DNA from: a virus
Virus record (IMG/VR): IMGVR_UViG_3300010375_000001
Location: 1-64,000 of that record
Length of the DNA: 64,000 nucleotides
Direction: 5' to 3' (one strand)
Under the pieces are notes generated by a model. That model did no database searches and was not told where the DNA came from. It saw only the letters and a program-made list of their open reading frames with translations. The position numbers and the translations under genes were made by a program. Positions 1 through 58,207 of the stretch are shown here, in pieces (within the stretch, counting starts at the first letter, position 1; the number at the start of each line of letters is the position of its first letter).

Positions 1-1215
1 ACAGGGAAGATAAAAGAGCTCGTACCAAGGTATGAGCACGCAACAGATGGGGGCGCCCCAATATTGCACACGTTTACTGATGCCAAAGGGAATGAGACTG
101 AGGCACCAGTGCGCTTGCTGGATCAGCAGGTGTTCGATGATTTTGCCAATAGGAAGGGCATCGGAGATCGATTGCGAGGCGAAGTAATGAAGCACTTGAA
201 AGAATACCATTCACCGGATGGACAAGAACTAACATTGGATAGTCCACAGGCGCACTTAGTAGCCAGAGCGATTGCCTATGACATGTTAAAAAACAGAAGG
301 GGCGGCGGTGTTGAAGATACCGGCATCCAGAACAAGCCATCGGCTCAAGAGATCGGTATCCGACTCTTCGGCGATCGGGAGCAGCGAGCATACGACACAC
401 GGTACGGCAGGGGCGAGGCGGAATACGATTTGGATCAAGCCGGCATGTTACCTAAGAAAAACAAGAAGGGCAATCCCAAAGAGAACACTGTAGATGCTAT
501 TAACGAAATCGCGACGCACAATCCAGAGTACTTACAGGGAGAACCTGAAGAATACGATGGCAAAGCAGTGATCGATGTACTCAATCAGTTGCCAAAGGCG
601 CAGCTAAGATACGGACCGACAAAAGTACAATCTTATAAGCATGCTTATTACGATCCCGAAGCTGGAACGTTTACTCTCATCAAGAATGATAAGAAGGCCG
701 CGCCAGAGGTTATTCAGCGTAAAGATATGCCCCGCTTTCTTCATAGTATAGCTACTGCCAATGGAGTCGAAAATAGGTACGTCGATAAATCCTTAGGCAA
801 CTACGGCTTTAACAAGGGAGATTATAGTAATCGGGCCGAAGCGCCGGATCTCGGAGCCGCGCTTTCAGAGCATCGTGCTACCCTGGTAGATAATGCCCTG
901 AGCGCCCCAACAGAAACCCAGCGATCCGCCGCTCTTAAAGATGCGGGTCTAAAAATACCGGAAGGCACCGTCATTGGCCTAAGTGAGAAGGGCGGTTTTA
1001 AGCAACTCTTTGGAGTCGCGCCATACTACATTAAATACCAAAAGCCGAATGGCGAGACCGATGAAAAGCATTTCAATAGCAAAAGTGAGATGGAGCAATA
1101 CCTGAAAAAGCCAATGGTCAAGCCGAAGTCGGCGTCAGAGTCTGTCCCAGCCGACCCTACTTCTAATCTGACACCGGAAGAGAAGGCTGCGTATGAAAAA
1201 TATCAAAATCAATAA
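1..1215 (+). CDS. hypothetical virion-associated protein, 5'-truncated by window edge
   Basis: Frame is open from position 1; stop overlaps the next ATG (TAATG); lies in the virion module. Confidence 0.6.
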   Translation, partial: TGKIKELVPRYEHATDGGAPILHTFTDAKGNETEAPVRLLDQQVFDDFANRKGIGDRLRGEVMKHLKEYHSPDGQELTLDSPQAHLVARAIAYDMLKNRRGGGVEDTGIQNKPSAQEIGIRLFGDREQRAYDTRYGRGEAEYDLDQAGMLPKKNKKGNPKENTVDAINEIATHNPEYLQGEPEEYDGKAVIDVLNQLPKAQLRYGPTKVQSYKHAYYDPEAGTFTLIKNDKKAAPEVIQRKDMPRFLHSIATANGVENRYVDKSLGNYGFNKGDYSNRAEAPDLGAALSEHRATLVDNALSAPTETQRSAALKDAGLKIPEGTVIGLSEKGGFKQLFGVAPYYIKYQKPNGETDEKHFNSKSEMEQYLKKPMVKPKSASESVPADPTSNLTPEEKAAYEKYQNQ

Positions 1216-25715: not shown

Positions 25716-25738
25716 GGTTAGCTTATATAATCCTTTTG

Positions 25739-25809
25739 TTGTCTGTGGGGGACTCGAACTCCCATCTACTGACCTAATGCCAGCATACTACCAATTATAC
25801 TAACAGACA
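25739..25809 (-). tRNA. degenerate tRNA with non-canonical anticodon loop (identity undetermined)
   Basis: Acceptor TGTCTGT/ACAGACA, D loop AATTGGTA, T arm GGGAG-TTCGAGT-CCCCC; anticodon stem CTGGC/GTCAG closes only 5 nt (ATTAG). Confidence 0.6.
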
Positions 25810-44300: not shown

Positions 44301-44364
44301 CACTCTTTACAAGCTCTACCGACGAACCGCGTAGCTTGCACAAGGGGCGAGCCCTTGAAGAGTG
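44301..44364 (+). ncRNA. mini-tRNA-like element
   Basis: CACTCTT/AAGAGTG acceptor; CAAGG-GGCGAGC-CCTTG T arm. Confidence 0.55.
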
Positions 44365-44379
44365 CTAAAATTGACAACT

Positions 44380-44790
44380 ATGTTTACTCAACAAGAAAGG
44401 GACCTCATGCAGGCGGCTATAGCCTCACATCTACTTTACTTATACGATACTCGGGCTATGACTTTAGAACAAAAAGAAGCGGAACGTGATAAGGTGAGAG
44501 CGCTATCAGCAAAGATTGACGCAACCGCTAATAAGGGACCATATAAGCCGATTACGTTAGTCCTAGACCACATCGGATGCCTTCATATGTTTGCGGGCGA
44601 TGTTCATCCAACTGGCCGGGATCATCCGAAGGTTAATGGCCGCGAAGCGGTAACGTTTATCCAGCGGCAAGAGGACATTGAGGGTATAATGGAGTATCTA
44701 ACAGATGACGAACAAGAGAATTTAAGCGGTGGTAATCCGGTTCGTACAACGTACGTTCCGGATTACTATATCATTCCCGTTCAATCCTAA
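44380..44790 (+). CDS. hypothetical protein
   Basis: ATG 15 nt after the element. Confidence 0.6.
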   Translation: MFTQQERDLMQAAIASHLLYLYDTRAMTLEQKEAERDKVRALSAKIDATANKGPYKPITLVLDHIGCLHMFAGDVHPTGRDHPKVNGREAVTFIQRQEDIEGIMEYLTDDEQENLSGGNPVRTTYVPDYYIIPVQS

Positions 44791-44839
44791 CCCCTCATTG
44801 CATAACGGCAATCTGCGTAGTTCGAGACTGCGCAGGGGT
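44790..44839 (+). ncRNA. mini-tRNA-like element
   Basis: ACCCCT/AGGGGT; ATTGC/GCAAT hairpin; GCGTAG-TTCGAGA-CTGCGC. Confidence 0.65.
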
Positions 44840-44854
44840 GCTAAACTTACACAC

Positions 44855-45133
44855 ATGAAAAAGATAGACGGAACTTCCCCTAAGCGTAATAGGTTTACCA
44901 ACCTTGAACAGGTCGCGCGGTTGCTTCTCAAAAGACTGATATCTTTCACCTATACACCTGCTTGTATTGTAGTCACTGATTCGGATAAGAGCGAAATGGC
45001 GTTTTACACAGCCACCTATGATTTTGAAACCAAAGAAGTAGTATTAATGATGGGTGCAAGCTATATAGCGGAAAAGCATTACATAGAAATCAAGCATAGT
45101 GATGCGGTATTATACATTGAACGCGCGAAGTAA
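44855..45133 (+). CDS. hypothetical protein
   Basis: ATG after the element. Confidence 0.55.
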   Translation: MKKIDGTSPKRNRFTNLEQVARLLLKRLISFTYTPACIVVTDSDKSEMAFYTATYDFETKEVVLMMGASYIAEKHYIEIKHSDAVLYIERAK

Positions 45134-45213
45134 GTCATTTCAGGGCTTCGATACTTAACACAGGGACCGCATGTCTATGCGGTCCTTTACTATTATAAAC
45201 AACATTTAAATAT

Positions 45214-45336
45214 ATGGACGCACTAAATGAGTTTATCCTAATCATCGCATCGGTTGCCGGGTTGGGCACGCTGATCTTTATGTATGGCTTCTTTAAGGAC
45301 TGCGAAGAGTCTGACAACACTTCCCCGCGTGGTTAA
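45214..45336 (+). CDS. 40-aa membrane peptide
   Basis: MDALNEFILIIASVAGLGTLIFMYGFF...; A-rich leader. Confidence 0.45.
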   Translation: MDALNEFILIIASVAGLGTLIFMYGFFKDCEESDNTSPRG

Positions 45337-45371
45337 AGGCCACCGTTAGCGGTCAGCGCGCTAACGGGGAG
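45321..45371 (+). ncRNA. mini-tRNA-like element (variant T loop)
   Basis: TTCCCCG/CGGGGAG; GTGGT/GCCAC hairpin; TTAGCG-GTCAGCG-CGCTAA. Confidence 0.5.
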
Positions 45372-45412
45372 CACTGCCTTACGGCAAGAATTCGAACTAA
45401 AAACAGATCATT

Positions 45413-45628
45413 ATGAAACACTTCTTTCAAGTGGACAATGACCACGTAGATCGTGTTCGGGAGATTGCGATGAAAAGCGCGCTACACATTGGAATCAGTA
45501 AGGAATGGGATACAAAGACGGATATGTATGTTACTAGTCTTCCCAATGAAGCCGATACGCTGATTAAGAGGCTTAAACGAAATGGCATTAGCGCGCGCAT
45601 TTATAAGCGCATCGACTACGCGAACTAA
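45413..45628 (+). CDS. hypothetical protein
   Basis: Follows the CGAACTAAAAACA motif. Confidence 0.55.
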   Translation: MKHFFQVDNDHVDRVREIAMKSALHIGISKEWDTKTDMYVTSLPNEADTLIKRLKRNGISARIYKRIDYAN

Positions 45629-45638
45629 AAACAACTAT

Positions 45639-45860
45639 ATGACAAAAGTTAAAACGAACGAGCAGCGCTTTCGCGCGCTGCTCAACGATTTGGGACCGTT
45701 TGGCGCGGCTATACTACGGGAGCGCATGATGAACATGGTACAGTATAATCGCGATGCCATTGAGAAAGACCCGGAGTCTTTCAACAATCCGCTCTTCAAC
45801 CACACACACTATTCGGCATTGTGTGACAAGATTGAAAAGCACCTGGGTTTCGAAGAGTAA
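45639..45860 (+). CDS. hypothetical protein
   Basis: Follows CGAACTAAAAACAA. Confidence 0.55.
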   Translation: MTKVKTNEQRFRALLNDLGPFGAAILRERMMNMVQYNRDAIEKDPESFNNPLFNHTHYSALCDKIEKHLGFEE

Positions 45861-45867
45861 CCCGGCC

Positions 45868-45910
45868 ATCCCTTGGGTCAGGCCTATGCTGTTCGAATCA
45901 GCGAAGGGAG
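45868..45910 (+). ncRNA. mini-tRNA-like element
   Basis: TCCCTT/AAGGGA; GGGT/GCCT hairpin; TGCTG-TTCGAAT-CAGCG. Confidence 0.65.
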
Positions 45911-46177
45911 CGAACTAAAAACAAGATGTATGTCCGATTTATTCATGTGGTTGCTGTTAGTCGGCTTCTATGCCGTGCTGATGCAGTTTCCCGGTTATAA
46001 ACCTAAAAGACGTAAGGTATGAGCTTGTATGTAGTGGAACTGGTAAACGGTGATATCGTTACCGTTTACGCGGATAGTGAGCAGGATGCAGCAGAGCAAG
46101 TGTAGGACACGGACCGCGTAGGCGGCGCAATGGACCGGTTAATGCCGGTCCTTTCTTTGTAACTAATATCTATTTAT

Positions 46178-46450
46178 ATGGAGAAGATTCTACTGATCGA
46201 TGCGAACAGGGGTATTTATATCCCGCAGGAGTTTGCCAAGGCTTACGGGGAGCAATTCACCGGAACTTCATTAGAAGAGGATATAGCGATACTTCTGGAA
46301 GGTCCCGACCATGCTGAATACAATGAGGCAATGGACGAAATTCTCCTGAAGGGAGGGCTAATATTAGATGGGAAAAAGTACAGGATTGACCAGGACGGTG
46401 ACTTATGGGCGGTCCCTGAAGGGTATGAAGAACCGGAAGAGGCCTCGTAA
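46178..46450 (+). CDS. hypothetical phage protein
   Basis: RGIYIPQEFA..GPDH.EY.EA..QDGDLW. Confidence 0.65.
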   Translation: MEKILLIDANRGIYIPQEFAKAYGEQFTGTSLEEDIAILLEGPDHAEYNEAMDEILLKGGLILDGKKYRIDQDGDLWAVPEGYEEPEEAS

Positions 46451-46516
46451 CCACCATCCCCGATCCCGTTTTGGACATTCAACGCATTTTAGAATATTAA
46501 CGGAAAATCAATCAAC

Positions 46517-46705
46517 ATGAAAGTAATAACTATTACGGGGAACGTTCCCGGCAAGGTGATTTTTAACTTAGAAGGTTTAACACAATTGCAAATAGCGTCC
46601 CTCTATAATGCATTAGAGGATGCTATTGCAAAAGAGCTATTCCATAATCCGACAAGGGGCGAATTGCTGAAACAGTTGCATGAAGCTATCGCCCCTTACT
46701 TATAG
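46517..46705 (+). CDS. hypothetical protein
   Basis: ORF in operon. Confidence 0.5.
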   Translation: MKVITITGNVPGKVIFNLEGLTQLQIASLYNALEDAIAKELFHNPTRGELLKQLHEAIAPYL

Positions 46706-46754
46706 GTTAACTGACGAGTCTTGAATAGACGAAAGGGGGCAACCCCTCTTAACC
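46705..46754 (+). ncRNA. type I hammerhead ribozyme
   Basis: Stem I GGTTAA/TTAACC; core CTGACGA; stem II GTC-TTGAATA-GAC; GAAA; stem III GGGG-GCAA-CCCC; CUC cleavage triplet ending at 46748. Confidence 0.85.
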
Positions 46755-46792
46755 AAAAGACAGCCGCAGTCTATAACAGGCGGGCCAATGTT

Positions 46793-47452
46793 ATGAACAA
46801 GAAAAATTACCGGACCGTACGGACCAAGGTGTATCAATTTGATGCGCTGAGCGATAAGGCGAAGAAAAAAGCCATAGAGCAATGCCGCTACTTCAATGTT
46901 GATGGCGAGTGGTGGGAGTTTATCTACGATGATTTCAAGCGGATTTGCGAAACCGTTGGCGTCGACGTTGATTTAAAGAAAACCCACTTCCGTTTCTCAA
47001 GTCAGGGGGACGGGGCTGCGTTTACAGCGGATGTTGATTTGTTCAAGCTGATCGACGGCATTAACGGGGAGGCATGGCGGCAAGAGGCGCCCAACTTGGA
47101 CAAGGAAAATAACTTTACTCCTCCTCATTGCAGCGTAGATCGGCGGGTATTGGATTTGATCAAACGGGACTGGATTAGTTTCACGGTGAACCTTGAAGCG
47201 AAGGACCGGCCTTATCATACAAAGGCAGATATCGAGTACGATTACACTCAGGATTCGTGCGGGTCCTATGAGAACATTGAGAACCAGCTGGACTTATTAT
47301 ACCTATGGGTCAAAGACGTTGTCATCGAATTGAACCATTTGCTATATCGCATCCTAAAACGTGAATACGAATGGCGGACGAGCGATGAAGCGGTCATTGA
47401 AACGATCAAGGCCAACGAATATGAGTTTCTGGCTGATGGCAAACGCTTTTAA
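46793..47452 (+). CDS. hypothetical phage protein
   Basis: KVYQFD.LSD.AK.KA..FSSQGDGA.F..EYE..SDEAV.ETI.ANEYEF..DG family pattern. Confidence 0.65.
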   Translation: MNKKNYRTVRTKVYQFDALSDKAKKKAIEQCRYFNVDGEWWEFIYDDFKRICETVGVDVDLKKTHFRFSSQGDGAAFTADVDLFKLIDGINGEAWRQEAPNLDKENNFTPPHCSVDRRVLDLIKRDWISFTVNLEAKDRPYHTKADIEYDYTQDSCGSYENIENQLDLLYLWVKDVVIELNHLLYRILKREYEWRTSDEAVIETIKANEYEFLADGKRF

Positions 47453-47494
47453 CCCTACATGGTGCAACGCCCCGGATCGTCGCCGGGGTAGGTT
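47452..47494 (+). ncRNA. mini-tRNA-like element
   Basis: ACCCTAC/GTAGGTT; CCCGG-ATCGTCG-CCGGG. Confidence 0.6.
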
Positions 47495-47512
47495 CGAACT
47501 AAAAACAAGTGT

Positions 47513-47842
47513 ATGGAAACTCTACCGATGATCCCGAAGGATCAACTTATTTGCAAGAGTCATGCGGCATCGATGCTCATGATCTTTACGGAACGGCATT
47601 TCAAGGACCTCGTTTTGCACATTTATGAACGGGCTAAGAAGAACCAGGAACGATGGCTTTATTACAACCTTGTGAATATCCTTCTTTACAGGGTGACGAA
47701 CGAATGGGTCGATCAAATGGAGGCCGTTGAAATGGATGCTACCCTTATCCGCGAAATGTCCGTCAGCGATCAGGAGGAGTACGTAAGAGTGTATGAAAAC
47801 AGGTATTCGCATTGGTTGCGATATGGTGTCTTAATGCCATAA
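47513..47842 (+). CDS. hypothetical protein
   Basis: Follows element and motif. Confidence 0.55.
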   Translation: METLPMIPKDQLICKSHAASMLMIFTERHFKDLVLHIYERAKKNQERWLYYNLVNILLYRVTNEWVDQMEAVEMDATLIREMSVSDQEEYVRVYENRYSHWLRYGVLMP

Positions 47843-47884
47843 CCACGCTTGGAGCTTGCAAGGGATCGTTTCCCTTGCGTGGTT
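47841..47884 (+). ncRNA. mini-tRNA-like element
   Basis: AACCACG/CGTGGTT; GCT-TGG-AGC; CAAGGG-ATCGTTT-CCCTTG. Confidence 0.65.
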
Positions 47885-47902
47885 CGAACTAAAAACAAGT
47901 GT

Positions 47903-48025
47903 ATGAAAAAGCAAAATGCTACAGGTGTAAGCCTGTTTATCTTCACGGCGGTTGTTATGATCGGGTTTGCCCTGACTATTTATTCCATCAACGCTGCGTT
48001 GTGGGTGTATTCCCCGGGCCGGTAG
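47903..48025 (+). CDS. 40-aa membrane peptide
   Basis: MKKQNATGVSLFIFTAVVMIGFALTIYSI... Confidence 0.5.
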   Translation: MKKQNATGVSLFIFTAVVMIGFALTIYSINAALWVYSPGR

Positions 48026-48109
48026 AGCGACTTCTACGATCGTTTAGTTTTATCCATGCGACCTCAATCGGTCGCTTTAAAGGACCGGGTTTCTACCCGG
48101 TCCACATTT

Positions 48110-48155
48110 TCCCTACGGATCATAACGATGCCGTGCTATTCGATTAGGATAGGGA
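48110..48155 (+). ncRNA. mini-tRNA-like element (weak T stem)
   Basis: TCCCTA/TAGGGA; CGG.ATC/GAT.CCG hairpin; CTA-TTCGAT-TAG. Confidence 0.5.
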
Positions 48156-48175
48156 CCGAACTAAAAACACATAAT

Positions 48176-48823
48176 ATGACACCCGAACAGTTCGAAAAGT
48201 ACATTAGCATTAAGCTACAGGAAAGTAAGCTAACTCAAAAGCGACTCGAAGAAAATTGCGCATTATTTGTTGATGTGACAAAGATTGCCCTTGAGATAAT
48301 GCTACACGCTGGCATATCAAAACTTCACGCGCTAACGGCAATGTATGGTCCCTTTATGGATTCTAAGTGTGAAGGCGAGGTGAATTTTTGGTGGACAGGA
48401 TACATCCAAATGTATGACAGCTGTAAAATCCGCTATTCTATTGAGCTTGCCCGGCAATGGGTTAACGGCAACCAATGGTGCGAGGTGGGCATGAAGTACC
48501 CGACCTTTGATAAGGCGAAGTTCGTAAAGCGCTTTAAGCTCCAATATGTCGGACTGTATCCGGCTGATGGCGTTGAGTATGAGGTTTGGGAGAATCCGGG
48601 CCGGACCATGATGTGGTCATGTAGTCCAGGGAGCTTCGGTAAGGGAGGATACGCGGGCCTTGTCTTCGATACGTTTGATAGCGCGTATCAGTTCGTACAG
48701 TGGTTTATGTCTTCGCCTACTCACTATGTGAAAGACATCGATGTCTTTCACAATGGACTGGGCGGCCTCGGTGTTGAGCAGTACAAAACCATCCGCGAAC
48801 GAGGTTCAGTAAGTGCAAGCTAA
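48176..48823 (+). CDS. hypothetical protein
   Basis: Follows element and motif. Confidence 0.6.
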   Translation: MTPEQFEKYISIKLQESKLTQKRLEENCALFVDVTKIALEIMLHAGISKLHALTAMYGPFMDSKCEGEVNFWWTGYIQMYDSCKIRYSIELARQWVNGNQWCEVGMKYPTFDKAKFVKRFKLQYVGLYPADGVEYEVWENPGRTMMWSCSPGSFGKGGYAGLVFDTFDSAYQFVQWFMSSPTHYVKDIDVFHNGLGGLGVEQYKTIRERGSVSAS

Positions 48824-48830
48824 CCACCCA

Positions 48831-48884
48831 CAGCGGGACCGTGGTCCTTCGGGATCGGCGAGGCATTCGAAGTGCCGCCCGCTG
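48831..48884 (+). ncRNA. mini-tRNA-like element
   Basis: CAGCGGG/CCCGCTG; GGTCC-TTCG-GGATC; GGCA-TTCGAAG-TGCC. Confidence 0.65.
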
Positions 48885-48905
48885 CTAATCAAAAACAAGT
48901 ACATT

Positions 48906-49232
48906 ATGGTGGATGCGTCAAACTTTTATATTAGGACTGATTGCACGTGGTCTTATCTATACTATGGCAATAGAGCCTATGATCTTTTTTCAGAACTGAA
49001 AAACACTTCTGGTATCGAGATTGTCCGTCCTTATGCAAGTTCAAGCTATTATGCGGTAGATGCTGCCAAAAATGAAGTATACCGGCTTTCGAACCATTGG
49101 GGGCGCGTTGCGTCCTGTTTTTGGTTTTTAGACAAAGACCTACCGATTTGGCAGCTACGCCAGCGATTGTATGTAATTGCGAAAGCAAATTTTTCTGATT
49201 TTATTCAAAAACCACACCCGGTTGATTATTAA
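48906..49232 (+). CDS. hypothetical phage protein
   Basis: SSSYY..VYRLSNHWGRVASC.W. Confidence 0.6.
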   Translation: MVDASNFYIRTDCTWSYLYYGNRAYDLFSELKNTSGIEIVRPYASSSYYAVDAAKNEVYRLSNHWGRVASCFWFLDKDLPIWQLRQRLYVIAKANFSDFIQKPHPVDY

Positions 49233-49257
49233 CTAAAATTTTCAAAACTCTAAAACT

Positions 49258-49560
49258 ATGGCACACACTAAAGGACGTTGGTCATCGTATGAAGATGCTG
49301 TTACCGCTAAAGTAAAGGCAAGGGGGCGTATCGATGTTTCTCAAGTTGATATCTGCCATATGTACGACGACGATGGCATACCGCGCAGCGAGCAGCGGGA
49401 TAACAAGAAGCTGATCAAAGCTGCGCCGGATATGTATAGGGCTTTGCAAGAGATCATTGATGTAATTGAATCAGGTGACCGTAAGGTAATGCGAATCATT
49501 CTGCTGAAAGCGTTGATGTATGCCAAGGCCGGGCTGCGCAAAGCTCCGAAGCGAAAGTAA
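49258..49560 (+). CDS. hypothetical phage protein (HTKG.W / LI.AAPD family)
   Basis: MAHTKGRW..KLIKAAPDMYRAL. Confidence 0.65.
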   Translation: MAHTKGRWSSYEDAVTAKVKARGRIDVSQVDICHMYDDDGIPRSEQRDNKKLIKAAPDMYRALQEIIDVIESGDRKVMRIILLKALMYAKAGLRKAPKRK

Positions 49561-49564
49561 CTAA

Positions 49565-49610
49565 TAGCGGGCCGCACTACAGGTGCAGACATTCGCCATG
49601 TCACCCGCTG
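49565..49610 (+). ncRNA. mini-tRNA-like element
   Basis: TAGCGGG/CCCGCTG; GCAC/GTGC; GACA-TTCGCCA-TGTC. Confidence 0.65.
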
Positions 49611-49629
49611 CGAACTAAAAACTAGTAAG

Positions 49630-49896
49630 ATGAAATCAACGCTTAGATTGAAAGTGTCTATCAAGGTAGGCACGGCAAAGGCGATGGAAAAATGGTATCG
49701 CGATTTATTCCATGCCTGTGACAAAAAGAGGATTGATGTCGTCCGGGAGCTGGTAACGATGGAGGAGAACCAGCGGCGGGCCGGTGATTGGAATTGGGGG
49801 GCCGAATGTTTCGATGCCGAGTTCATTACGGAGAAAGACGATCTATTGCATCGGGCATTCCTGTTAGTGGAGGCCGCGAAGATGGGCAAGCAATAG
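49630..49896 (+). CDS. hypothetical protein
   Basis: Follows element. Confidence 0.55.
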   Translation: MKSTLRLKVSIKVGTAKAMEKWYRDLFHACDKKRIDVVRELVTMEENQRRAGDWNWGAECFDAEFITEKDDLLHRAFLLVEAAKMGKQ

Positions 49897-49921
49897 CCCA
49901 TTTTTAATCCCTACCCCCGTA

Positions 49922-49966
49922 CAGCGCGCTGACTTCGGTGTCTACCCTTCGATGCGGGGCGCGCTG
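49922..49966 (+). ncRNA. mini-tRNA-like element
   Basis: CAGCGCGC/GCGCGCTG; GAC-TTCGGT-GTC; CCC-TTCGATGC-GGG. Confidence 0.6.
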
Positions 49967-49982
49967 GCTAAAACACAACTAT

Positions 49983-50339
49983 ATGAGTTACGATCTTAAA
50001 CTGAAAGACCCGCTAACAGGCGAAACCATCCTGTTAGCGGAGGACCATCACATAACAGGTGGTACATACGCACTTGGTGGAACAAAAGAAGCGTGGATTA
50101 ATATTACTTATAACTACGGTGGTATTTTTCGTCAGGTGCTTGGAGAAAATGGTATCCGAACGATTTACGGCATGACCGGTGCGGAAGCGCTGCCGCTCTT
50201 GGAAAAGGCCATCTATCAGCTAAAGAGTGATATGACGGACAACTACTGGGATGCGACTGAAGGTAATGCCAAGAAAGCGCTGCTAAATGTAGCTGCTTTA
50301 TCCGCTCTTGCTCCCCAAGGGATATGGAGCGGAGACTAA
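49983..50339 (+). CDS. hypothetical phage protein (NITYNY family)
   Basis: MSYD..GGTY..AWINITYNY..GIR.IYG.TG..DNYW.ATEGNAK.AL. Confidence 0.7.
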   Translation: MSYDLKLKDPLTGETILLAEDHHITGGTYALGGTKEAWINITYNYGGIFRQVLGENGIRTIYGMTGAEALPLLEKAIYQLKSDMTDNYWDATEGNAKKALLNVAALSALAPQGIWSGD

Positions 50340-50377
50340 CCGCCTGACGGCGAAATTTTATAACTAAACTTACCCCA

Positions 50378-50593
50378 ATGAACAAGAAAGATGGAAGGCC
50401 TTTCTATGAGGCCTGTTATGATGGTATGATGTCAACGGTAATCGAAATAACGGCGGATGATGTAAAATATGAATATCATACGGTGGACAACTATGAGTTT
50501 TTTTGGAGCCGAGCCAAAGCGGTGAGAGCATTGCGGGCAAGACTGCGCCGGGAGATTCGTGATCTTAAGTATTGCTTAAAGCATCTTCATTAA
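50378..50593 (+). CDS. hypothetical protein
   Basis: ORF in operon. Confidence 0.5.
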   Translation: MNKKDGRPFYEACYDGMMSTVIEITADDVKYEYHTVDNYEFFWSRAKAVRALRARLRREIRDLKYCLKHLH

Positions 50594-50615
50594 TTAGTAA
50601 ACTAAAAACAAGTAT

Positions 50616-50807
50616 ATGAAAACATTCGATTGTACAGTAATTTACGCGAGGCCTTCGCATTGGGGAGGCATTGAATCAAAACGCTGGCAATGTCGCATTC
50701 ATGCAATTGACGAGTCAGCAGCCGAATCAATTGCTCCATTGTTAGTTGCAGATAAGACCTACCTATATACAATAATGGTAGAGGTTGAAGTAACAGTTAT
50801 TCTCTAA
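50616..50807 (+). CDS. hypothetical protein
   Basis: Follows AACTAAAAACAA. Confidence 0.5.
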   Translation: MKTFDCTVIYARPSHWGGIESKRWQCRIHAIDESAAESIAPLLVADKTYLYTIMVEVEVTVIL

Positions 50808-50856
50808 AACGCCACAGTGGACCGCCACGCATGCAGCTCGTGCGCTGCATGGCGTT
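50808..50856 (+). ncRNA. mini-tRNA-like element
   Basis: AACGCCA/TGGCGTT; GTGG-ACCG-CCAC; TGCAG-CTCGTGCG-CTGCA. Confidence 0.6.
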
Positions 50857-50875
50857 CGAACCAAATCAGTATATT

Positions 50876-51259
50876 ATGGGTTACGAAACAAGGCTGTACA
50901 TTGGCCTATTGCATGAGAAGATGCTCGCGACTGATCCGGGTCGGTACGTTAGAAAGTTAGCGATGATCGAAATCGATGCTCCTATTTTCACTGGTACTTT
51001 CATTGAAGAAAAGGACAAGGAAGTGCCGGTCTATTTGATTGCCGATGGCGATGCAAACCCGGATGAAATGCTTGCCGATGATAAGTATGGAAGTCAGCTC
51101 TATGCGATCAATCCGCAGAAAATTCAGGCGAAGCTATTAATCTTTCAAGGACTGAAAGAATATCCGATGGCCTTTGCAGCTGCGCAATTCCTGCGTTCTC
51201 TTATCATGGACTACGCGAAGACGAGATGGGAACTTGTTTGCGTCTTGTATGGACACTGA
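50876..51259 (+). CDS. hypothetical protein
   Basis: MGYETRLYIG..VLYGH. Confidence 0.6.
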   Translation: MGYETRLYIGLLHEKMLATDPGRYVRKLAMIEIDAPIFTGTFIEEKDKEVPVYLIADGDANPDEMLADDKYGSQLYAINPQKIQAKLLIFQGLKEYPMAFAAAQFLRSLIMDYAKTRWELVCVLYGH

Positions 51260-51260
51260 A

Positions 51261-51308
51261 AACGCCAAGCGGATGGGCCGCGCGCCGGGATCGTGTCCCG
51301 GTGGCGTT
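51261..51308 (+). ncRNA. mini-tRNA-like element
   Basis: Perfect 7+5 bp: AACGCCA/TGGCGTT; GCGG-ATGGG-CCGC; CCGGG-ATCGTGT-CCCGG. Confidence 0.7.
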
Positions 51309-51326
51309 CTAACTAAAAACAAGTAT

Positions 51327-51578
51327 ATGACTGATCTAAAGTTCGTCGTCCGCTTGGGAGTGATTAACCCCGAAACGGAGGAACTGCAATCCATCGATAT
51401 TTACATGGATGCGGGTGGTGTAATGGTTGGATTCGACTCTATACCTATCGCCAATGGGGATAGGCTATATTCCCCCTATGATAAAAAGGAGGTAACGCTG
51501 GAAGGCCAGGAGGCCATTAAGCAGCCGCGCCGCGAGTCGAATGCAAAGAAATATTCATCACTGCTGAAGAAATTATAG
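51327..51578 (+). CDS. hypothetical protein
   Basis: Follows element and motif. Confidence 0.55.
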   Translation: MTDLKFVVRLGVINPETEELQSIDIYMDAGGVMVGFDSIPIANGDRLYSPYDKKEVTLEGQEAIKQPRRESNAKKYSSLLKKL

Positions 51579-51589
51579 TAATAACATCA

Positions 51590-51612
51590 AACGTTTCCGG
51601 ACCGTAACCGGA
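51590..51612 (+). repeat. AACGTT + T-arm-only hairpin (near-copy at 57295-57317)
   Basis: AACGTT-TCCGG-ACCGTAA-CCGGA. Confidence 0.6.
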
Positions 51613-51619
51613 CCACAAG

Positions 51620-52036
51620 ATGAAACACACAATAACGTTGCATCGCGTCACAACGGAAGTAATAGAAGTTGAGATTGAGGCAAAAACAATCAAGGCGGCT
51701 ATACAAAAGGCAGAGAAAACAGCATTTGCCGAAAACGCTTTTGAAACCAACAAACCGGAAGTCAATAGCATCGACTATTATGTCTGGACAGAGCAGAGGA
51801 ATCGAATGCCGGAAATACTCATTACCGTTGATGGTGGCATCATCGATGAAATTATATCTACCACGCGCAATATCAAAGTCTCAGTTATTGACGACGATGA
51901 CGAAGGTCGCTCGCCGGGAGAAAGCAAAATCCCCTATTTCCAAGCGCAACCGGATAGTATCGTTACGTTCGACCATATTAAAGCGATGTTGGAAGAGGCG
52001 GAAGACGAGCAACTGAATGAGCAAGATGAAGAATAG
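51620..52036 (+). CDS. hypothetical protein
   Basis: ORF in operon. Confidence 0.6.
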   Translation: MKHTITLHRVTTEVIEVEIEAKTIKAAIQKAEKTAFAENAFETNKPEVNSIDYYVWTEQRNRMPEILITVDGGIIDEIISTTRNIKVSVIDDDDEGRSPGESKIPYFQAQPDSIVTFDHIKAMLEEAEDEQLNEQDEE

Positions 52037-52043
52037 AAGCTTT

Positions 52044-52087
52044 AACCCTGCTTGGAGCTACGGCCCGGATCGATGCCGGGCGGGGTT
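52044..52087 (+). ncRNA. mini-tRNA-like element
   Basis: 7+5 bp: AACCCTG/CGGGGTT; CT-TGG-AG; CCCGG-ATCGATG-CCGGG. Confidence 0.7.
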
Positions 52088-52105
52088 CTAAAAATGTAGA
52101 TCATT

Positions 52106-52504
52106 ATGAATACAGTAAAACGAACAGAAAAAGGCTGGGCGGGTCATTTCATATGTTCAAGATGGTGTTTATTTCGCCGCCATACACTCCTGGAATATGG
52201 TGATATAGCGATTACCGTTAGCACGGTGGGTAACCATCTTTCATATGATGAGAAAATGCAGGACCTTGGAATTGGACGTTATTTCGAAACGATGGTTTTT
52301 CACTCTGAGCCCGTTACGGTGGACAACCATTGGAAAGATGCGGATGTGAGCAAGCAGATTGCCATTCGTTCCAGGAGCACTATCGGTGAGCCGTGGAAGG
52401 AACAGGAGGCCAATGATATGCATGAACGAATTGTTCAGGAGTTTGTCGATGACTTGCTGGCCGGGAATCGGTTTGAAATACCTGCCGATGACTACGATGA
52501 ATAA
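52106..52504 (+). CDS. hypothetical phage protein
   Basis: RTE.GW.GHF..C.FRR.TLL..VSTVG..YFETMVF. Confidence 0.65.
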   Translation: MNTVKRTEKGWAGHFICSRWCLFRRHTLLEYGDIAITVSTVGNHLSYDEKMQDLGIGRYFETMVFHSEPVTVDNHWKDADVSKQIAIRSRSTIGEPWKEQEANDMHERIVQEFVDDLLAGNRFEIPADDYDE

Positions 52505-52757
52505 TAAAAATAAACTGTTTGATATGGACCATCGGTGGACCAAAGGAAAATACGCGGCCTACCTCAACAAGGAGTATAGCAAGTGTACTTTGGAGCAAAT
52601 TCATAGAAAGTTCAGCTATCTCTATGATTCGGTGGCTGGGGAAAATGCGCTTACGAGGGCGTGGGTGGGAGGCAGGGTGGGCAGTTATGTCGCTGATCAT
52701 GATCCGGAGGCCTTTAACAATTGGTACGAAAAATGGGTTGCACAAAAAAAACGTTAG
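52497..52757 (+). CDS. hypothetical protein
   Basis: Overlap-coupled ORF. Confidence 0.5.
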   Translation: MNNKNKLFDMDHRWTKGKYAAYLNKEYSKCTLEQIHRKFSYLYDSVAGENALTRAWVGGRVGSYVADHDPEAFNNWYEKWVAQKKR

Positions 52758-52773
52758 CGGATCGTAACCGCGT
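52749..52773 (+). repeat. AACGTT + T-arm-only hairpin (identical copy at 56815-56839)
   Basis: AAACGTTAGCGG-ATCGTAA-CCGCGT. Confidence 0.65.
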
Positions 52774-52778
52774 GAAAT

Positions 52779-53024
52779 ATGAGAAGTATTAAAGTAGTAG
52801 TTACAGTGCTAAAGCTAAACGCTCAAGTAGCCATCGCCCACCAGTATGATATGGAAGGGTCTCAAGAAGTATCATCGAAACGGAAAATTCGGCGAGCTAT
52901 TTCGCGATATATAGGCAATTATGGAGAGTCCTGTGTGGATGACCGCCAAACAGAGAGTAGCAATGAGGCATGGGCTTTTGCAGAAAAGGCCTATGCTAAA
53001 TATTTTAATAGTTTTAAACGATAA
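52779..53024 (+). CDS. hypothetical protein
   Basis: ORF in operon. Confidence 0.5.
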   Translation: MRSIKVVVTVLKLNAQVAIAHQYDMEGSQEVSSKRKIRRAISRYIGNYGESCVDDRQTESSNEAWAFAEKAYAKYFNSFKR

Positions 53025-53027
53025 CAC

Positions 53028-53738
53028 ATGAAACAAAAACTAATCATCGCCATCGCTTTTTTGTTAGGCCTTGGCGTATTACCCGGTTATCTTATTGCGA
53101 AGCGCATCGTCTCTATGCGCGGCAAGAGTGAAGCCGCAGCAAAGCATACTGTCACCGACAACCCGCAGTATAACGAGCAGCTGAAGATATGGGGCGCGTA
53201 TTGGGGGCCCCGTTCGATTGTTATGTTGGGTGACTCGCATATGTACAAATGTCACTGGGATGAGTTATTAAGCCGGGACAGCATCGCCAACCAGGGCATT
53301 GGCAGCGATATAACGGAAGGATATCTGGCCCGTATTGGGTACGTTTTCGATGTGAAGCCCCGGATTTGTTTTATCGAGGGCGGGGGCAATGATATCGAGT
53401 ATAAGATTGCGCCTGCGGAGATCGTGGCCAATATCCAGCGGATCGTGGATACGTTGAAGCCGAAGGGCATTATCTGCGTGCTAACGACCGTTCCGTATGA
53501 GCTGAGCACGTTAGCCGGAGCGCAGCAATACAACGGGGCTATCGACGAGCTGAATGCACGTGTCAGGATGTATGCCTACAAAAACGGGCTGGACTACATC
53601 GATCTGAACGGGCTAACGGCACGCGACGGAGCGCTCAACCCGGATGAGGCGCAGAATGACGGCGCACATCTCACCGCAGCCGCGTACGTGAATTGGAAGC
53701 TGGCAATGGAAAAGATTTTGAAAAAGTATAAATTGTAA
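53028..53738 (+). CDS. membrane-anchored SGNH/GDSL hydrolase (esterase)
   Basis: MLGDS, NQGIGSD, GGGND, DGAH blocks; N-terminal TM/signal. Confidence 0.85.
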   Translation: MKQKLIIAIAFLLGLGVLPGYLIAKRIVSMRGKSEAAAKHTVTDNPQYNEQLKIWGAYWGPRSIVMLGDSHMYKCHWDELLSRDSIANQGIGSDITEGYLARIGYVFDVKPRICFIEGGGNDIEYKIAPAEIVANIQRIVDTLKPKGIICVLTTVPYELSTLAGAQQYNGAIDELNARVRMYAYKNGLDYIDLNGLTARDGALNPDEAQNDGAHLTAAAYVNWKLAMEKILKKYKL

Positions 53739-53740
53739 CA

Positions 53741-53995
53741 ATGGCTATGGTAATTACCCCATATCAGGGGATAAACGATGACTTTCTGGAACACCGGTTT
53801 GCGCGATGCATCAATTTATTTTTCGAAGGCAAACGCGAAGAATCTTTCGATGTCTTTCAACAGATGGATAAAAAAACACACGCTACATTTTTCGTATGCC
53901 TGGGCATAGCCATGCAAATGAATAGTGAGAAGATGACCGGCATGTCGGCGGGAGAGGCGAATGAACTTTTTAAATATTATTTGGATAAAATTTAA
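53741..53995 (+). CDS. hypothetical protein
   Basis: ORF in operon. Confidence 0.5.
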   Translation: MAMVITPYQGINDDFLEHRFARCINLFFEGKREESFDVFQQMDKKTHATFFVCLGIAMQMNSEKMTGMSAGEANELFKYYLDKI

Positions 53996-54001
53996 ACGTA
54001 A

Positions 54002-54044
54002 ACCGCGTGGTCTGGCCTATCCGGGATCGTAACCTGGACGCGGG
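54002..54044 (+). ncRNA. mini-tRNA-like element
   Basis: CCGCGT/ACGCGG; GGT-CTG-GCC; CCGGG-ATCGTAA-CCTGG. Confidence 0.65.
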
Positions 54045-54072
54045 CAATCATTCTATAACCAATTTACCCATT

Positions 54073-55713
54073 ATGGCTACTCGAATTTTACCAACGCCAG
54101 ACGAATTGGAGCAGGCGTTGCTTGCCCATATTTTGTCGCCTCCCGTTATCCGGATTGCCGTTATAGCTGCCACGCTTATGATAACCAATCAGGAGTTCCA
54201 TAAGATATGGATGAGTCGTCACACAACGAAGCCACACGATTGGTATATGGAAAAAAGGATGGAGGCAGCAGCTAAGCTGCTATTGGAAGGCAATACCATT
54301 GACGAAACAGCCCGCATCCTCGGTTATGCGAGTGTGGGCGGATTGCTTGTGCCATTCCGTACGCGATTCGGCAAATCGCCTACGGAATATATTGCTGAAC
54401 ATAGAGAGGCAGAGTCTTTAATTAAGCATCGGGCCAAGGTAGTGGAAATGTCGAAGGTTGTGGCTATTAATGCGCGGCGCATCCGATGCGAAAAAAACTG
54501 GACGCAAGCTAAAGTAGCCAAAGCATTGGGCGTAGTCGCTAGCAAGTATACGCTACGAGAAAGTGGGGAAATGCTTTTTAGTCGCGAGCAGATCGAACGG
54601 CTTGCTAAAGCCTTGGAGGTAACATCGGCCGACTTGCTGGAAGGTTTCGAAATTAACCAAAACAATAACCTTCAAATTGATTCTATGGCTGAAATGTCAC
54701 TAGGCGTTGCGATAGGTAAGAACCTACGGCGCATTCGCAAAGAGAAACAACTTACACTTAAAGACCTGGAAGACCTCACCGATATTGAGGCGTACAAACT
54801 GGATTATATGGAGGGAGGGGGGCATAAATTTAATAGGGTAATGATCGAGAAGCTGGCGATGGCTCTTGGTGTACCTCCCTCTGATTTGACGGAAGGGGCC
54901 GATCCTTCTCGCGATATCGCCCAGTTATACGAGACGTATAAAGGGCTATCTGTGGCTGACATTCGCCTTGTCGAAGATAGTGACCAGGAGGCCGACTTTG
55001 ACCCAGAGCAGTTAGCAAAAGATACCAGGAAAATGCTCGCGAGCGAAGAGAAAAGGAGTGTCCGACAAGTTATTCGGCCGGTGCCGAAGGAAACGGAGGA
55101 GCCCGACCTGGGCGCGGAAGAAGAAACGCCAGCACAGGCCAAAGAAGAGCCGGTAGCGCCTCCAGCGGAAACAGCCAGCCAGCCAACCGACCCCGGATCG
55201 GCGGCACAACTGTTAATCGAGTATACCAAGCAAACGCCACACCTTCAGGATATGGTAGAAAAGCTGTACAAGGCACGGCTGACAGATAAGATAACAGACC
55301 TGGCGTTATATGTGCAGCGCAAGCTGCTGCCTACGGTGATAGTAGCGTATGTATCCGATGAGGATAACAAAGTCAAGGCCGTTGAACGGGTTCGAACGAT
55401 GAGCGAGGCGGAGAAGTTTACCTATCTCCAATTTTGCGCACAAGGGTATGACACCTGGAAGGCGGCGTTGTTTCCGGAAGAGGAGCTGTCCCTGGGTGTG
55501 CTGATCGCGGCCAACACGGAGGCGGCGCTGGTGGCGGCGTTCGAGCTGGATAAACGCCGCGCCCTGGCCGACCTGCTACTGCCACTTATCAGATCCTCCT
55601 CCAGCCCTAGGGGAGTAGATATGGGGCTGCTATCCATGGCGGTAGGAGAGTGGATAGAGGACCTGACCAAGGTACAGCAGGCGATTACGGAATATCTGGA
55701 AACAACCAAGTAA
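54073..55713 (+). CDS. multi-HTH regulator: AraC-type HTH plus two XRE HTH domains
   Basis: RMEAAAKLL..IDETARILGY..FRTRFGKSPTEY (AraC); RIRCEKNWTQAKVA and LRRIRKEKQLTLKDL (XRE). Confidence 0.8.
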   Translation: MATRILPTPDELEQALLAHILSPPVIRIAVIAATLMITNQEFHKIWMSRHTTKPHDWYMEKRMEAAAKLLLEGNTIDETARILGYASVGGLLVPFRTRFGKSPTEYIAEHREAESLIKHRAKVVEMSKVVAINARRIRCEKNWTQAKVAKALGVVASKYTLRESGEMLFSREQIERLAKALEVTSADLLEGFEINQNNNLQIDSMAEMSLGVAIGKNLRRIRKEKQLTLKDLEDLTDIEAYKLDYMEGGGHKFNRVMIEKLAMALGVPPSDLTEGADPSRDIAQLYETYKGLSVADIRLVEDSDQEADFDPEQLAKDTRKMLASEEKRSVRQVIRPVPKETEEPDLGAEEETPAQAKEEPVAPPAETASQPTDPGSAAQLLIEYTKQTPHLQDMVEKLYKARLTDKITDLALYVQRKLLPTVIVAYVSDEDNKVKAVERVRTMSEAEKFTYLQFCAQGYDTWKAALFPEEELSLGVLIAANTEAALVAAFELDKRRALADLLLPLIRSSSSPRGVDMGLLSMAVGEWIEDLTKVQQAITEYLETTK

Positions 55714-55724
55714 ACGAATGACTC

Positions 55725-56168
55725 ATGAGTAATTATGATGTACTGAAGGGTGCTATTATAAATATGTTTACCCATTGGACGAATGGAAACAAGAATGCTT
55801 GCTACCGGGAATATTTTTCTTTAAATGTTGAGCAGCGGAAGATCATAGAGGAAACGCTAAGAAAAGGCTCCCGAGTATATCCAAGCCGAGCCCAGCGCAA
55901 GGATGCGCAGCAAATATTGTCAATGATAAAAAAGAACACTGATAAGGAGGCTCAATTGCTGACACACACGCTAAAGGAGCTTATGCAGTATTGGTTCTTA
56001 AGCAGTAGGGAGATATTTTATAGCCACTATCTTGCGTTGGGGGAATTCGAAAAGCGTACAATAATAGAAGCCATTGAGGAGGTATTTGGTACAGATGAAA
56101 ACGCGGAATTCAGACAGGCGGCGATAGACATACCGAAGTATATCAAGGAGAGGGCTTCGGGATTGTAA
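55725..56168 (+). CDS. hypothetical protein with internal duplication
   Basis: Two similar helical halves (M..HW/YW...Y..L...R.IIE). Confidence 0.5.
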   Translation: MSNYDVLKGAIINMFTHWTNGNKNACYREYFSLNVEQRKIIEETLRKGSRVYPSRAQRKDAQQILSMIKKNTDKEAQLLTHTLKELMQYWFLSSREIFYSHYLALGEFEKRTIIEAIEEVFGTDENAEFRQAAIDIPKYIKERASGL

Positions 56169-56197
56169 ACCAAGTAATTTTTAAAAACCAGCAATTG

Positions 56198-56833
56198 ATG
56201 GATCAATTAAAAAATGTTAGTAACGAAATTCCAGAGCGTTTCCCCTTTGAAAAGAGGAACTGGAAAGATTTAGATATGGATAAAATGATGGTCGAATATC
56301 AAGAAAAAGAACGATTACAGGCTCTCGGTATGTACGCCCATGTGAATTGGCAATGGGTAAGGCCGTTGGCCAAGTGGCTGGGCGAGCGAAGGGTATTAGA
56401 GGTTATGGCTGGCGCTGGATGGTTGGCAAAGGCGCTCAGGGAATGCGGCATATCGGTGGTTGCAACCGACGACTTTTCCTGGGGTGAGAAGAAAGGCTGG
56501 CAACTACAGACGGAAGTGGAACAGCTAGAGGCATCTGCTGCCATTCTTAAATACGGGGAAGAGTGTGATATTCTTCTTATCTCTTGGCCTTGGATGGATG
56601 CTGATGCATACAACGCTCTCACTAAATGGAACGAAGTCCATCCCGATGGATTAATCATCTATATAGGGGAGTATGGAGGAGGATGTACAGCCGATGATGA
56701 CTTTCACGACCATTTTGAGATGGTGAACGACAGCGGATTCGGAGAAGTGCAGGCTATCTATCGGCATTGGGATGGAATGCACGACCGCATTTACTTGGGA
56801 AAGTATTCATCTTTAAACGTTAGCGGATCGTAA
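56198..56833 (+). CDS. class I SAM-dependent methyltransferase-like protein
   Basis: VLEVMAGAGWLA, VVATDD, LLISWP, IYIGE..GCTADD.F. Confidence 0.7.
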   Translation: MDQLKNVSNEIPERFPFEKRNWKDLDMDKMMVEYQEKERLQALGMYAHVNWQWVRPLAKWLGERRVLEVMAGAGWLAKALRECGISVVATDDFSWGEKKGWQLQTEVEQLEASAAILKYGEECDILLISWPWMDADAYNALTKWNEVHPDGLIIYIGEYGGGCTADDDFHDHFEMVNDSGFGEVQAIYRHWDGMHDRIYLGKYSSLNVSGS

Positions 56834-56846
56834 CCGCGTATAGCTT

Positions 56847-57290
56847 ATGAGATCAATTTTAGTTTTTGCATTCAGCGCTATTCTGGTTGGGTCAGCGAAT
56901 CTACCCCATCATCTTCAGGCCACTAAGCGGATCGATTGTGTAGCCGACGATACGAGTGCGCGGCACGGTCACGATGTCGAGACAGAAAGTTCGTTAACCA
57001 TTCTTATTGATCCAGCTGAAAAGCATCTTCGCTTGGCCGATAGCAGCTATAGGATTGATAGTGTCGTCCATCCTGGAAATGACTATTGGGTGTTGTTTAC
57101 GAAGAAAGATCCAGCCGCGCCAACTAGTAAGGGCGACACGTTGGATTGGCGCTTTGATATCCGAACCGTTCCAACGAATCCGGGACACTTCCAGGTTGTT
57201 GTCAGAGGGGCGCACTGGATAATCTTCAATGGCGAAAGCGTGTACAACACAGGTATCCTATATTACTTCGACTGCGTATCGAAAGATTAA
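56847..57290 (+). CDS. secreted hypothetical protein
   Basis: Signal peptide MRSILVFAFSAILVGSA. Confidence 0.55.
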   Translation: MRSILVFAFSAILVGSANLPHHLQATKRIDCVADDTSARHGHDVETESSLTILIDPAEKHLRLADSSYRIDSVVHPGNDYWVLFTKKDPAAPTSKGDTLDWRFDIRTVPTNPGHFQVVVRGAHWIIFNGESVYNTGILYYFDCVSKD

Positions 57291-57325
57291 TCTTAACGTT
57301 TCCGGACCGCAACCGGATCAACAAT

Positions 57326-57820
57326 ATGCAATATGATAAGATGCTTGTTGGACAAGTAAAAATCTGCAATGATTTGCTGGAAGCAATGGGTCGAAAAGAG
57401 CGACTAAAATTAAGCGATGACAAGAAGGGCAAATACGTAGTCATTGGCTATGACCAGCGAGGCAACGAAGTCCAAGCCGTAGGTGGTACAAGGAACGAGA
57501 TGGAAGCATACCTGGGCGGCTTTACAGCGTGCGCCTCTATGTTTAAGGATGTGCGCTTTTTTCTATCGGAGGAAGATTTAGAGAAAATGGGGTTCACTGA
57601 AGTGAGCCAGTATTACGAGCGAATTGCTACTGAAAACGTCCATGATCCAGAGGTGGAGGGCGAGGCGGAAAAATCTTCGGAAAGAGTGCGGGGGCTATTT
57701 CAGGCTATGGACCTGGAGCAGCAAAGCGACTGCTTGCTCTATCTGTTCGATAGGGCCGATAAAACATCTGATATAATGTATCGCAGTGCTTTGGCGTGTT
57801 GCATTACGCACTTATATTAA
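57326..57820 (+). CDS. hypothetical protein
   Basis: ORF in operon. Confidence 0.55.
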   Translation: MQYDKMLVGQVKICNDLLEAMGRKERLKLSDDKKGKYVVIGYDQRGNEVQAVGGTRNEMEAYLGGFTACASMFKDVRFFLSEEDLEKMGFTEVSQYYERIATENVHDPEVEGEAEKSSERVRGLFQAMDLEQQSDCLLYLFDRADKTSDIMYRSALACCITHLY

Positions 57821-57837
57821 CATTAAACGTTGCCGAT

Positions 57838-58125
57838 ATGCCAGAAGAATCAAAAGAAGAGTTCATTCAAAAGCACATCCAAAATATCTTTTTCATGCGA
57901 GCGTTATACGGACATGTTAATGCCTACGCCGGCTCGTTTGCTAACGATGAAAACGCGCTGAAGTTGGAAAATGGAGAACTGGTAAGCCCGTTAAATGTAA
58001 AGTTGGGTGTAGAATGGCAGCTGCGATCATTTAAATTTAAAGTTATCGAACATCTTCAGCGCGTTAAAGCACCTTCAGATCTGATAATAGAGCTTTACGA
58101 TTGGATGTTCAAAGACGATGTTTAA
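57838..58125 (+). CDS. hypothetical protein
   Basis: ORF in operon. Confidence 0.5.
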   Translation: MPEESKEEFIQKHIQNIFFMRALYGHVNAYAGSFANDENALKLENGELVSPLNVKLGVEWQLRSFKFKVIEHLQRVKAPSDLIIELYDWMFKDDV

Positions 58126-58161
58126 CACAGGCAAGCCCTGAGAAACCAATAATCCTAAACC

Positions 58162-58207
58162 CACGGCAACGGCGTAGGCCGCATAGGAATCGCGATCCTA
58201 TGCCGTG
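58162..58207 (+). ncRNA. mini-tRNA-like element
   Basis: Perfect 7+5 bp: CACGGCA/TGCCGTG; CGGC-GTAG-GCCG; TAGGA-ATCGCGA-TCCTA. Confidence 0.7.

Follow-up and report, generated by a model that had tools for sequence, protein, structure and literature searches.

In the operon of a phage whose gene junctions repeatedly carry small tRNA-like elements (mini-tRNAs), one junction instead opens with an apparent hammerhead ribozyme, and we asked whether this RNA is real, what it would do to the message and how its position relates to that of the tRNA-like elements. The window, by which we mean the whole stretch of 64,000 nucleotides that was analysed, represents the first 64 kb of a 74,021-bp genome with terminase, portal, integrase and primase genes. 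Full-stretch matches among sequencing runs came from two rhizosphere metagenome DNA runs of the probable source sample only, and no RNA run was among the listed runs that contain the stretch. A blastn search of positions 45000-49000 against 50,697 phage records returned no match. Because phage genes including an integrase are present and the only matches come from rhizosphere metagenomes, we regard the genome as that of an uncultured temperate phage.

The element at 46705-46754 (+) has a length of 50 nt and represents a full type I hammerhead with an open stem I. Its sequence read out letter for letter as given in the initial annotation, which had called it a canonical hammerhead beginning at the stop codon of the upstream gene. 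Both descriptions proved accurate: the core is intact, three helices form, the element strongly matches a covarying phage family, and G46705 is at once the first base of the hammerhead and the third base of the TAG that ends the upstream frame (46517-46705). The junction between the two plus-strand genes is 87 nt long, with the ribozyme occupying its first 50 nt, and, as had also been stated, it contains no mini-tRNA. The locus consists of the following features.

46517-46705 (+): upstream gene, 62 aa, no family match; open reading frame whose TAG stop overlaps base 1 of the hammerhead
46705-46710 (+): 5′ strand of stem I, GGUUAA, from the sequence; each of the six pairs of stem I covaries among family members
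46711-46717 (+): core CUGACGA (C3 U4 G5 A6 C7 G8 A9, with C as N7), invariant in family alignments
46718-46730 (+): stem II hairpin GUCU-UGAAU-AGAC, from sequence and fold; the fourth pair shows compensatory changes across the family (C-G, U-A, G-C)
46731-46733 (+): core GAA (G12 A13 A14), invariant in the family
46734-46747 (+): stem III hairpin AGGGG-GCAA-CCCCU with a GNRA loop, from sequence and fold; its pairs covary in the family
46748/46749 (+): predicted cleavage site, after C17 and before U1.1, from the hammerhead consensus
46749-46754 (+): 3′ strand of stem I, UUAACC, from sequence and fold; predicted 5′-OH end of the downstream message
46755-46792 (+): leader of the downstream gene, 38 nt, with a small hairpin in its sequence that also precedes the homologue in locus L127
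46793-47452 (+): downstream gene, 219 aa, start ATG at 46793, assigned to phrog_5162 (open reading frame, PHROGs)

Because both RNA ends lie in stem I, the element belongs to the type I class. All invariant hammerhead positions are intact, namely C3-A9, G12-A14, the A15.1-U16.1 pair closing stem III (A46734 with U46747) and position 17 (C46748), which is a non-G as hammerheads require; a cut directly after C17 is the established hammerhead consensus. The minimum free energy fold of the 50-mer is a three-way junction with stems I, II and III of 6, 4 and 5 bp, and this junction was kept in two of three longer sequence contexts. By each structural criterion that could be tested, the element is a hammerhead, and its catalysis is predicted.

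A type I hammerhead descriptor matched once on both strands of the whole 74,021-bp genome. In 1000 dinucleotide-preserving shuffles of the genome, a loose match appeared in three and an equally good one, with stems as long, in none. With filters off, no second hammerhead copy was found in the 74-kb genome, and the Rfam search found no other ribozyme class. The comparison with Rfam hammerhead models that had been suggested at the outset came out in two parts: RF00163 (Hammerhead_1, type I, clan CL00010) matches the element, and the score of 21.8 bits stays under the gathering cut-off of 34, with an E value of 0.0049 in a 261-nt search and of 0.48 in a 26-kb search. This cut-off is a curated threshold for one seed alignment, composed mostly of eukaryotic satellite hammerheads, and does not describe a structural feature. 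We built a covariance model (R2) from 54 phage hammerhead copies out of the pattern matches listed, leaving out the window sequence, and this model scored the element at 56.3 bits (E value 5e-17, filters off), with a runner-up of 11.8 bits in the whole genome.

The family was collected with a search pattern consisting of the core and the ends of stem II, CTGACGAGTC-N5-9-GACGAAA, so that stems I and III lay outside the pattern. It matched in at least 120 viral contigs of IMG/VR. Among the 126 matches listed, 103 were complete type I hammerheads, defined by at least 4 bp in stem I (exactly 6 in nearly every case) and at least 3 bp in the stem III hairpin, and a further 13 were type III. Because the pattern was taken from the core and stem II of the element, 17 bases are common to the family by construction. 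In 57 aligned copies from the matches listed, 98.7% of the cells were paired and 232 double-sided changes occurred, values that none of 500 shuffles reached, and pairing fell to 27-40% when the partner was shifted by 1-3 columns. The same covariation picture was obtained with 139 distinct copies aligned by the covariance model. Many of the matches listed combine the stem I (GGUUAA/UUAACC) and stem II of the window with a wholly different stem III (e.g. L075 and L107), and near-identical stem I and II sequences occur in many unrelated contigs. A GGTTAAC-specific pattern, which was too narrow, found two MAG contigs only in a scan of genome contigs.

We analysed the placement of 85 listed family members together with 400 nt on each side. 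An upstream open frame of at least 50 codons stops nearby in 75 of them, and for 85% of those 75 the stop lies no more than 10 nt from the first base of the hammerhead. Downstream, an ORF starting with ATG follows within 150 nt in 81 of the 85 (median distance 19 nt). Both features coincide in 73% of the listed members, compared to 3.8% at random same-strand positions of the same contigs. In the window, the stop overlaps base 1 and the ATG follows after 38 nt, among the longest spacings in the family. The cassette itself carries a stop for each of the three frames (UAA at bases 4-6, UGA at bases 8-10 and UGA at bases 18-20; 46705-46724 in the window, and likewise in the family), and upstream frames of the listed members preferentially end at offsets 0-2, 6, 10 and 20. 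Because these offsets are those of the stops within GGUUAA, CUGA and stem II, any frame that runs into the cassette meets a stop there; in the window, the TAG is backed up by a second stop in the same frame (UGA, 46712-46714). The matches listed also include arrays of five to eight hammerheads of this subfamily, all on one strand and roughly one per small gene (L080, n=8; L012, n=7; L088, n=6; L043, n=5).

Further hammerheads were observed in other settings. A 110-nt contig from what is probably the source sample contains a second hammerhead with the stem I, core and stem II of the window (matching 46704-46735), which we assign to another phage because stem III and the flanks differ. In contig L028, a type I hammerhead at 1432-1508 (+) lies between tRNA-Gln and tRNA-His in a phage tRNA array; the 5′ strand of its stem I includes the discriminator and CCA of tRNA-Gln, and the predicted cut at 1502/1503 would extend the 5′ end of tRNA-His by exactly one G. 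A G at position -1 is typical of tRNA-His. Two other contigs, L047 and L054, have a hammerhead that ends at tRNA-Tyr.

From sequence and placement, we consider it likely that this type I hammerhead, part of an early plus-strand operon, is catalytically competent and cuts its own polycistronic message at C46748/U46749. As soon as transcription has passed the 3′ strand of stem I, the RNA would fold into the three-way junction and cut itself between these two nucleotides, splitting the message into two pieces. The upstream piece would end 43 nt beyond the stop of the 62-aa gene with a 2′,3′-cyclic phosphate, and its 3′ end would still contain the hairpins of stems II and III. The downstream product would begin with 5′-OH-UUAACC and have a 44-nt leader ahead of the ATG of the 219-aa gene. 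We infer from this scheme that message stability and translation could be set separately for the two flanking genes.

The hammerhead is located on the same strand as both flanking genes. Because these two genes are in plus orientation and no terminator-like or promoter-like site was found between them, they are likely co-transcribed. Further upstream, at 46132-46151 (+), we observed a terminator-like hairpin, GGACCGG-UUAA-UGCCGGUCC, with a U-rich tail, 27 nt before the gene at 46178, and the hammerhead may therefore sit in a sub-operon that starts near 46178. A Bacteroidota-type promoter pattern gave three matches against 1.45 expected, none of them near the hammerhead. The leaders are A-rich and contain no Shine-Dalgarno sequence, which would fit a Bacteroidota host.

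How quickly such an RNA would cut is a separate matter. Fast natural hammerheads use a contact between stem I and loop II, which is needed at low Mg2+. When loop II was compared with the flanks by eye, no bulge or pseudoknot that could provide this contact was found; with this and a stem I of only 6 bp, activity at physiological Mg2+ is not assured. One could therefore suppose that the hammerhead fold cleaves slowly or conditionally and that its main effect is structural or regulated, be it by protecting the 3′ end of the upstream message or by a cut that depends on the exit of the ribosome terminating at the overlapping stop. With the known ribosome footprint, a ribosome at that stop would be expected to cover the 5′ strand and the core, which agrees with the second option, as does the shortness of the open stem I with slow cleavage in general. 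However, the core is fully consensus, and an A at -1, AA at +1/+2 and a U-N-A-N-U loop II are conserved in at least about 70% of the listed copies, all three features being present in the window element. These nucleotides, which we take to lie at the contact site of other type I hammerheads (Schistosoma structure), could provide the missing contact. Regulated cleavage has been raised for slow phage variants by Perreault et al. (PMC3088659), but the consensus prophage hammerheads tested in that 2011 study cut efficiently, and we regard slow or conditional cleavage as an unlikely account of this element.

Because the downstream gene has relatives, the junction could be compared across loci. About 100 homologues of the phrog_5162 protein were found, among them P0004-P0010 with 47-57% identity on contigs of 70-98 kb. 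A hammerhead lies directly upstream of the homologous gene in none of 86 loci (6 from IMG/VR and 80 from metagenomes), and among these 86 only L200 and L002 have one elsewhere in the locus. The element is therefore dispensable for that gene and behaves as a sporadic, portable cassette. In L127, the closest of the 86 loci (47% identity), the leader hairpin is kept and the ribozyme is absent, and the difference between the window and L127 looks like a clean indel of ~50 nt.

These comparisons bear on the reading that the hammerhead is a recently acquired portable cassette which still cleaves and brings no benefit to the phage, i.e. a neutral or selfish insertion. The presence of one copy only, the homologous L127 junction with its apparently clean indel, the recurrence of near-identical stems I and II in unrelated contigs and the fact that the cassette brings its own stops in all three frames agree with this reading. 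The placement of the family relative to stops and starts is, however, highly non-random, which argues for selection on placement, and no mobility machinery is associated with the cassette; we hold a purely neutral or selfish insertion to be very unlikely. A chance match to the hammerhead consensus without RNA function, for which the sub-threshold Rfam score and the E value of 0.48 in 26 kb might speak, is vanishingly improbable, because the genome holds a single descriptor hit, shuffles yielded no more than 0-3 matches per 1000, the family model gave an E value of 5e-17 and strand and position agree with the family; for practical purposes, shuffles and family model already refute it.

The leader hairpin in the window lies at 46759-46786 (+), AGCCGC...UAUAACAG GCGGG, just before the phrog_5162 ATG, and the same hairpin is found in L127 at about 5140-5172 without a hammerhead; this conserved hairpin may be a gene-specific translational operator. 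For the downstream protein, an ArdA-like identity was considered, following the ardA genes behind hammerheads in Perreault et al., and was dropped; searches with Pfam, NCBIfam and PDB profiles were all empty. Its AF2 model was confident (pLDDT 89.7, pTM 0.81), and Foldseek found nothing in the PDB at E ≤ 0.001. NCBI gives one distant homologue the label 'antitoxin of toxin-antitoxin stability system'.

Our preferred reading, a self-cutting hammerhead between two co-transcribed genes, leads to the other junctions of the same operon. The mini-tRNA repeats are real: they are mimics of the top half of tRNA located at gene junctions in the region 44301-58207 (+), and about 15 tRNA-like elements occur in the operon with the hammerhead. 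The junction after the phrog_5162 gene and the clean copies are the following.

47451-47494 (+): mini-tRNA, clean copy, that starts in the TAA stop of the phrog_5162 gene and is followed by CGAACUAAAAACAAGUGU and ATG
47841-47884 (+): mini-tRNA, clean copy, 7/7 acceptor pairs
50808-50856 (+): mini-tRNA, clean copy, 7/7 acceptor pairs
51261-51308 (+): mini-tRNA, clean copy, 7/7 acceptor pairs
52044-52087 (+): mini-tRNA, clean copy, 7/7 acceptor pairs
58162-58207 (+): mini-tRNA, clean copy, 7/7 acceptor pairs

The acceptor-like stem of these elements has 7 bp, starts with AAC and ends with GUU, and its four middle pairs vary between copies (AACCACG/CGUGGUU, AACGCCA/UGGCGUU, AACCCUG/CGGGGUU). After it come a short linker, a T-arm-like hairpin (loop AUCGNNN), C(G/U)AA and often CUAAAAACAAGU. 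Neither ARAGORN nor Rfam called the mini-tRNAs as tRNA. Relative to the end of the stop codon, the start of the clean copies ranges from 2 nt before to 8 nt after; those at 47451 and 47841 start with the AA of the UAA stop. The next ATG follows 18-21 nt after the end of the copy. The sole tRNA gene in the window was found at 25738-25809 (-), an ARAGORN suppressor with the anticodon UUA (reading UAA). Its anticodon loop, CAUUAGG, has an A at the U33 position; U33 is expected in tRNA anticodon loops. A sign of recoding was not seen, because long ORFs are intact under the standard code.

With a start at or within the stop and an ATG 18-21 nt past their end, the mini-tRNAs have the geometry of the hammerhead family. 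The statement of the initial annotation that the hammerhead occupies the same slot as the mini-tRNAs is thus right in geometry (stop overlap, ATG spacing), with the reservation that the ATG in the window lies at 38 nt against a family median of 19. Other hammerhead-bearing contigs contain similar elements with canonical T loops at adjoining junctions. In L014, a mini-tRNA at 684-733 (+) with the T loop UUCGACU precedes a 116-aa gene (758-1108), the TAG of which provides the first G of a type I hammerhead at 1108-1159, as in the window. Further mixed contigs are L010 (2719-2757), L071 (10799-10842) and L114 (4800-4843, minus strand), as well as L061, which is grouped with L014. Because L014/L061, L010 and L071/L114 mix both elements, sharing of the slot extends to at least three further phage lineages. 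With a generic descriptor for top-half tRNAs, 18 matches were obtained in hammerhead loci and 9 in shuffled loci, which is too unspecific to demonstrate enrichment.

The annotation had further held that the hammerhead independently supports a role of the junction elements as RNA cleavage signals. This support is circumstantial: several junctions of the hammerhead's operon carry neither a hammerhead nor a mini-tRNA, and the descriptor did not establish an enrichment. If both elements were equivalent, the mini-tRNAs would be cut 3′, because the hammerhead cuts near its 3′ edge, and a 3′ cut is favoured over 5′ cleavage by RNase P because the latter would remove the UAA stop. We tentatively propose, by analogy and as a possibility somewhat short of an even chance, two interchangeable punctuation marks in a slot from stop to start (~19 nt), namely a host-independent hammerhead and a host-dependent mini-tRNA cut 3′ by an RNase Z-like activity. 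The folded mini-tRNA would then remain on the upstream message as a 3′ cap. In this respect, the hammerhead serves as a calibration point, since its cut is predictable to the base and it occupies the same slot as ~15 tRNA-like elements. A limited search of open-access text found no description of hammerheads that share junction slots with tRNA top-half mimics.

Hammerheads between phage genes, which the initial annotation had rightly called known, have been reported since 2011: prophage hammerheads flank genes, and clusters of them cut in vitro and in E. coli (Perreault et al. 2011, PLoS Comput Biol, PMC3088659). The role proposed there is the processing of long phage transcripts between cistrons, and a later review still calls the purpose unproven (PMC6765202). 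The window element resembles these ribozymes in its consensus core, in the proposed cutting into gene-length messages and in lying between small genes, on their coding strand, in an integrase-encoding phage. However, the 2011 study stresses bacterial type II hammerheads and pseudoknot contacts, and clusters with two or three copies (PMC3088659), whereas the window has a single type I copy with an open stem I of 6 bp and no visible pseudoknot, which shares its operon with tRNA-like elements and not with other ribozymes.

Closer counterparts are the arrays of the type found in L080, L012 and L088, which have the same core, a 6-bp stem I (often the identical GGUUAA/UUAACC) and a stem II as in the window. 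Their placement is also the same, with the stop at the 5′ end and the ATG ~19 nt past the 3′ end. The array phages carry a hammerhead at most junctions, in contrast to the one copy and the 38-nt leader in the window genome, and arrays of five to eight exceed the two- or three-copy clusters described in 2011. Compared to RF00163, topology and core are the same and stem II closely resembles the consensus (GUCUUGAAUAGAC in the window, GUCCCAAAUAGGAC in the consensus). Because 21.8 bits fall below 34, the Rfam threshold would leave the element unannotated, and the subfamily as a whole, abundant in viral contigs and under the type I cut-off, goes unannotated as well. Whether the hammerhead and the mini-tRNAs are cut, and on which side the latter, bears on how long early transcripts are split and stabilised in phages whose leaders are not of the Shine-Dalgarno type.

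For the neighbouring mini-tRNAs only, a likeness exists to plant mitochondrial t-elements and to mitochondrial tRNA punctuation. The t-elements are tRNA-like structures at mRNA ends that are taken as RNase P and RNase Z signals (Forner et al. 2007, PMC1920247), and the mini-tRNAs share with them a 7-bp acceptor-like stem stacked on a T-arm-like hairpin. Unlike t-elements, the mini-tRNAs are candidate elements that have no D and anticodon arms, and a 5′ cut would remove the stop; the hammerhead, in turn, requires no host enzyme. Taken by itself, the element is an ordinary hammerhead, of a kind often found between the genes of phages; the unusual feature is that the same slot is filled with mini-tRNAs at other junctions of this phage.
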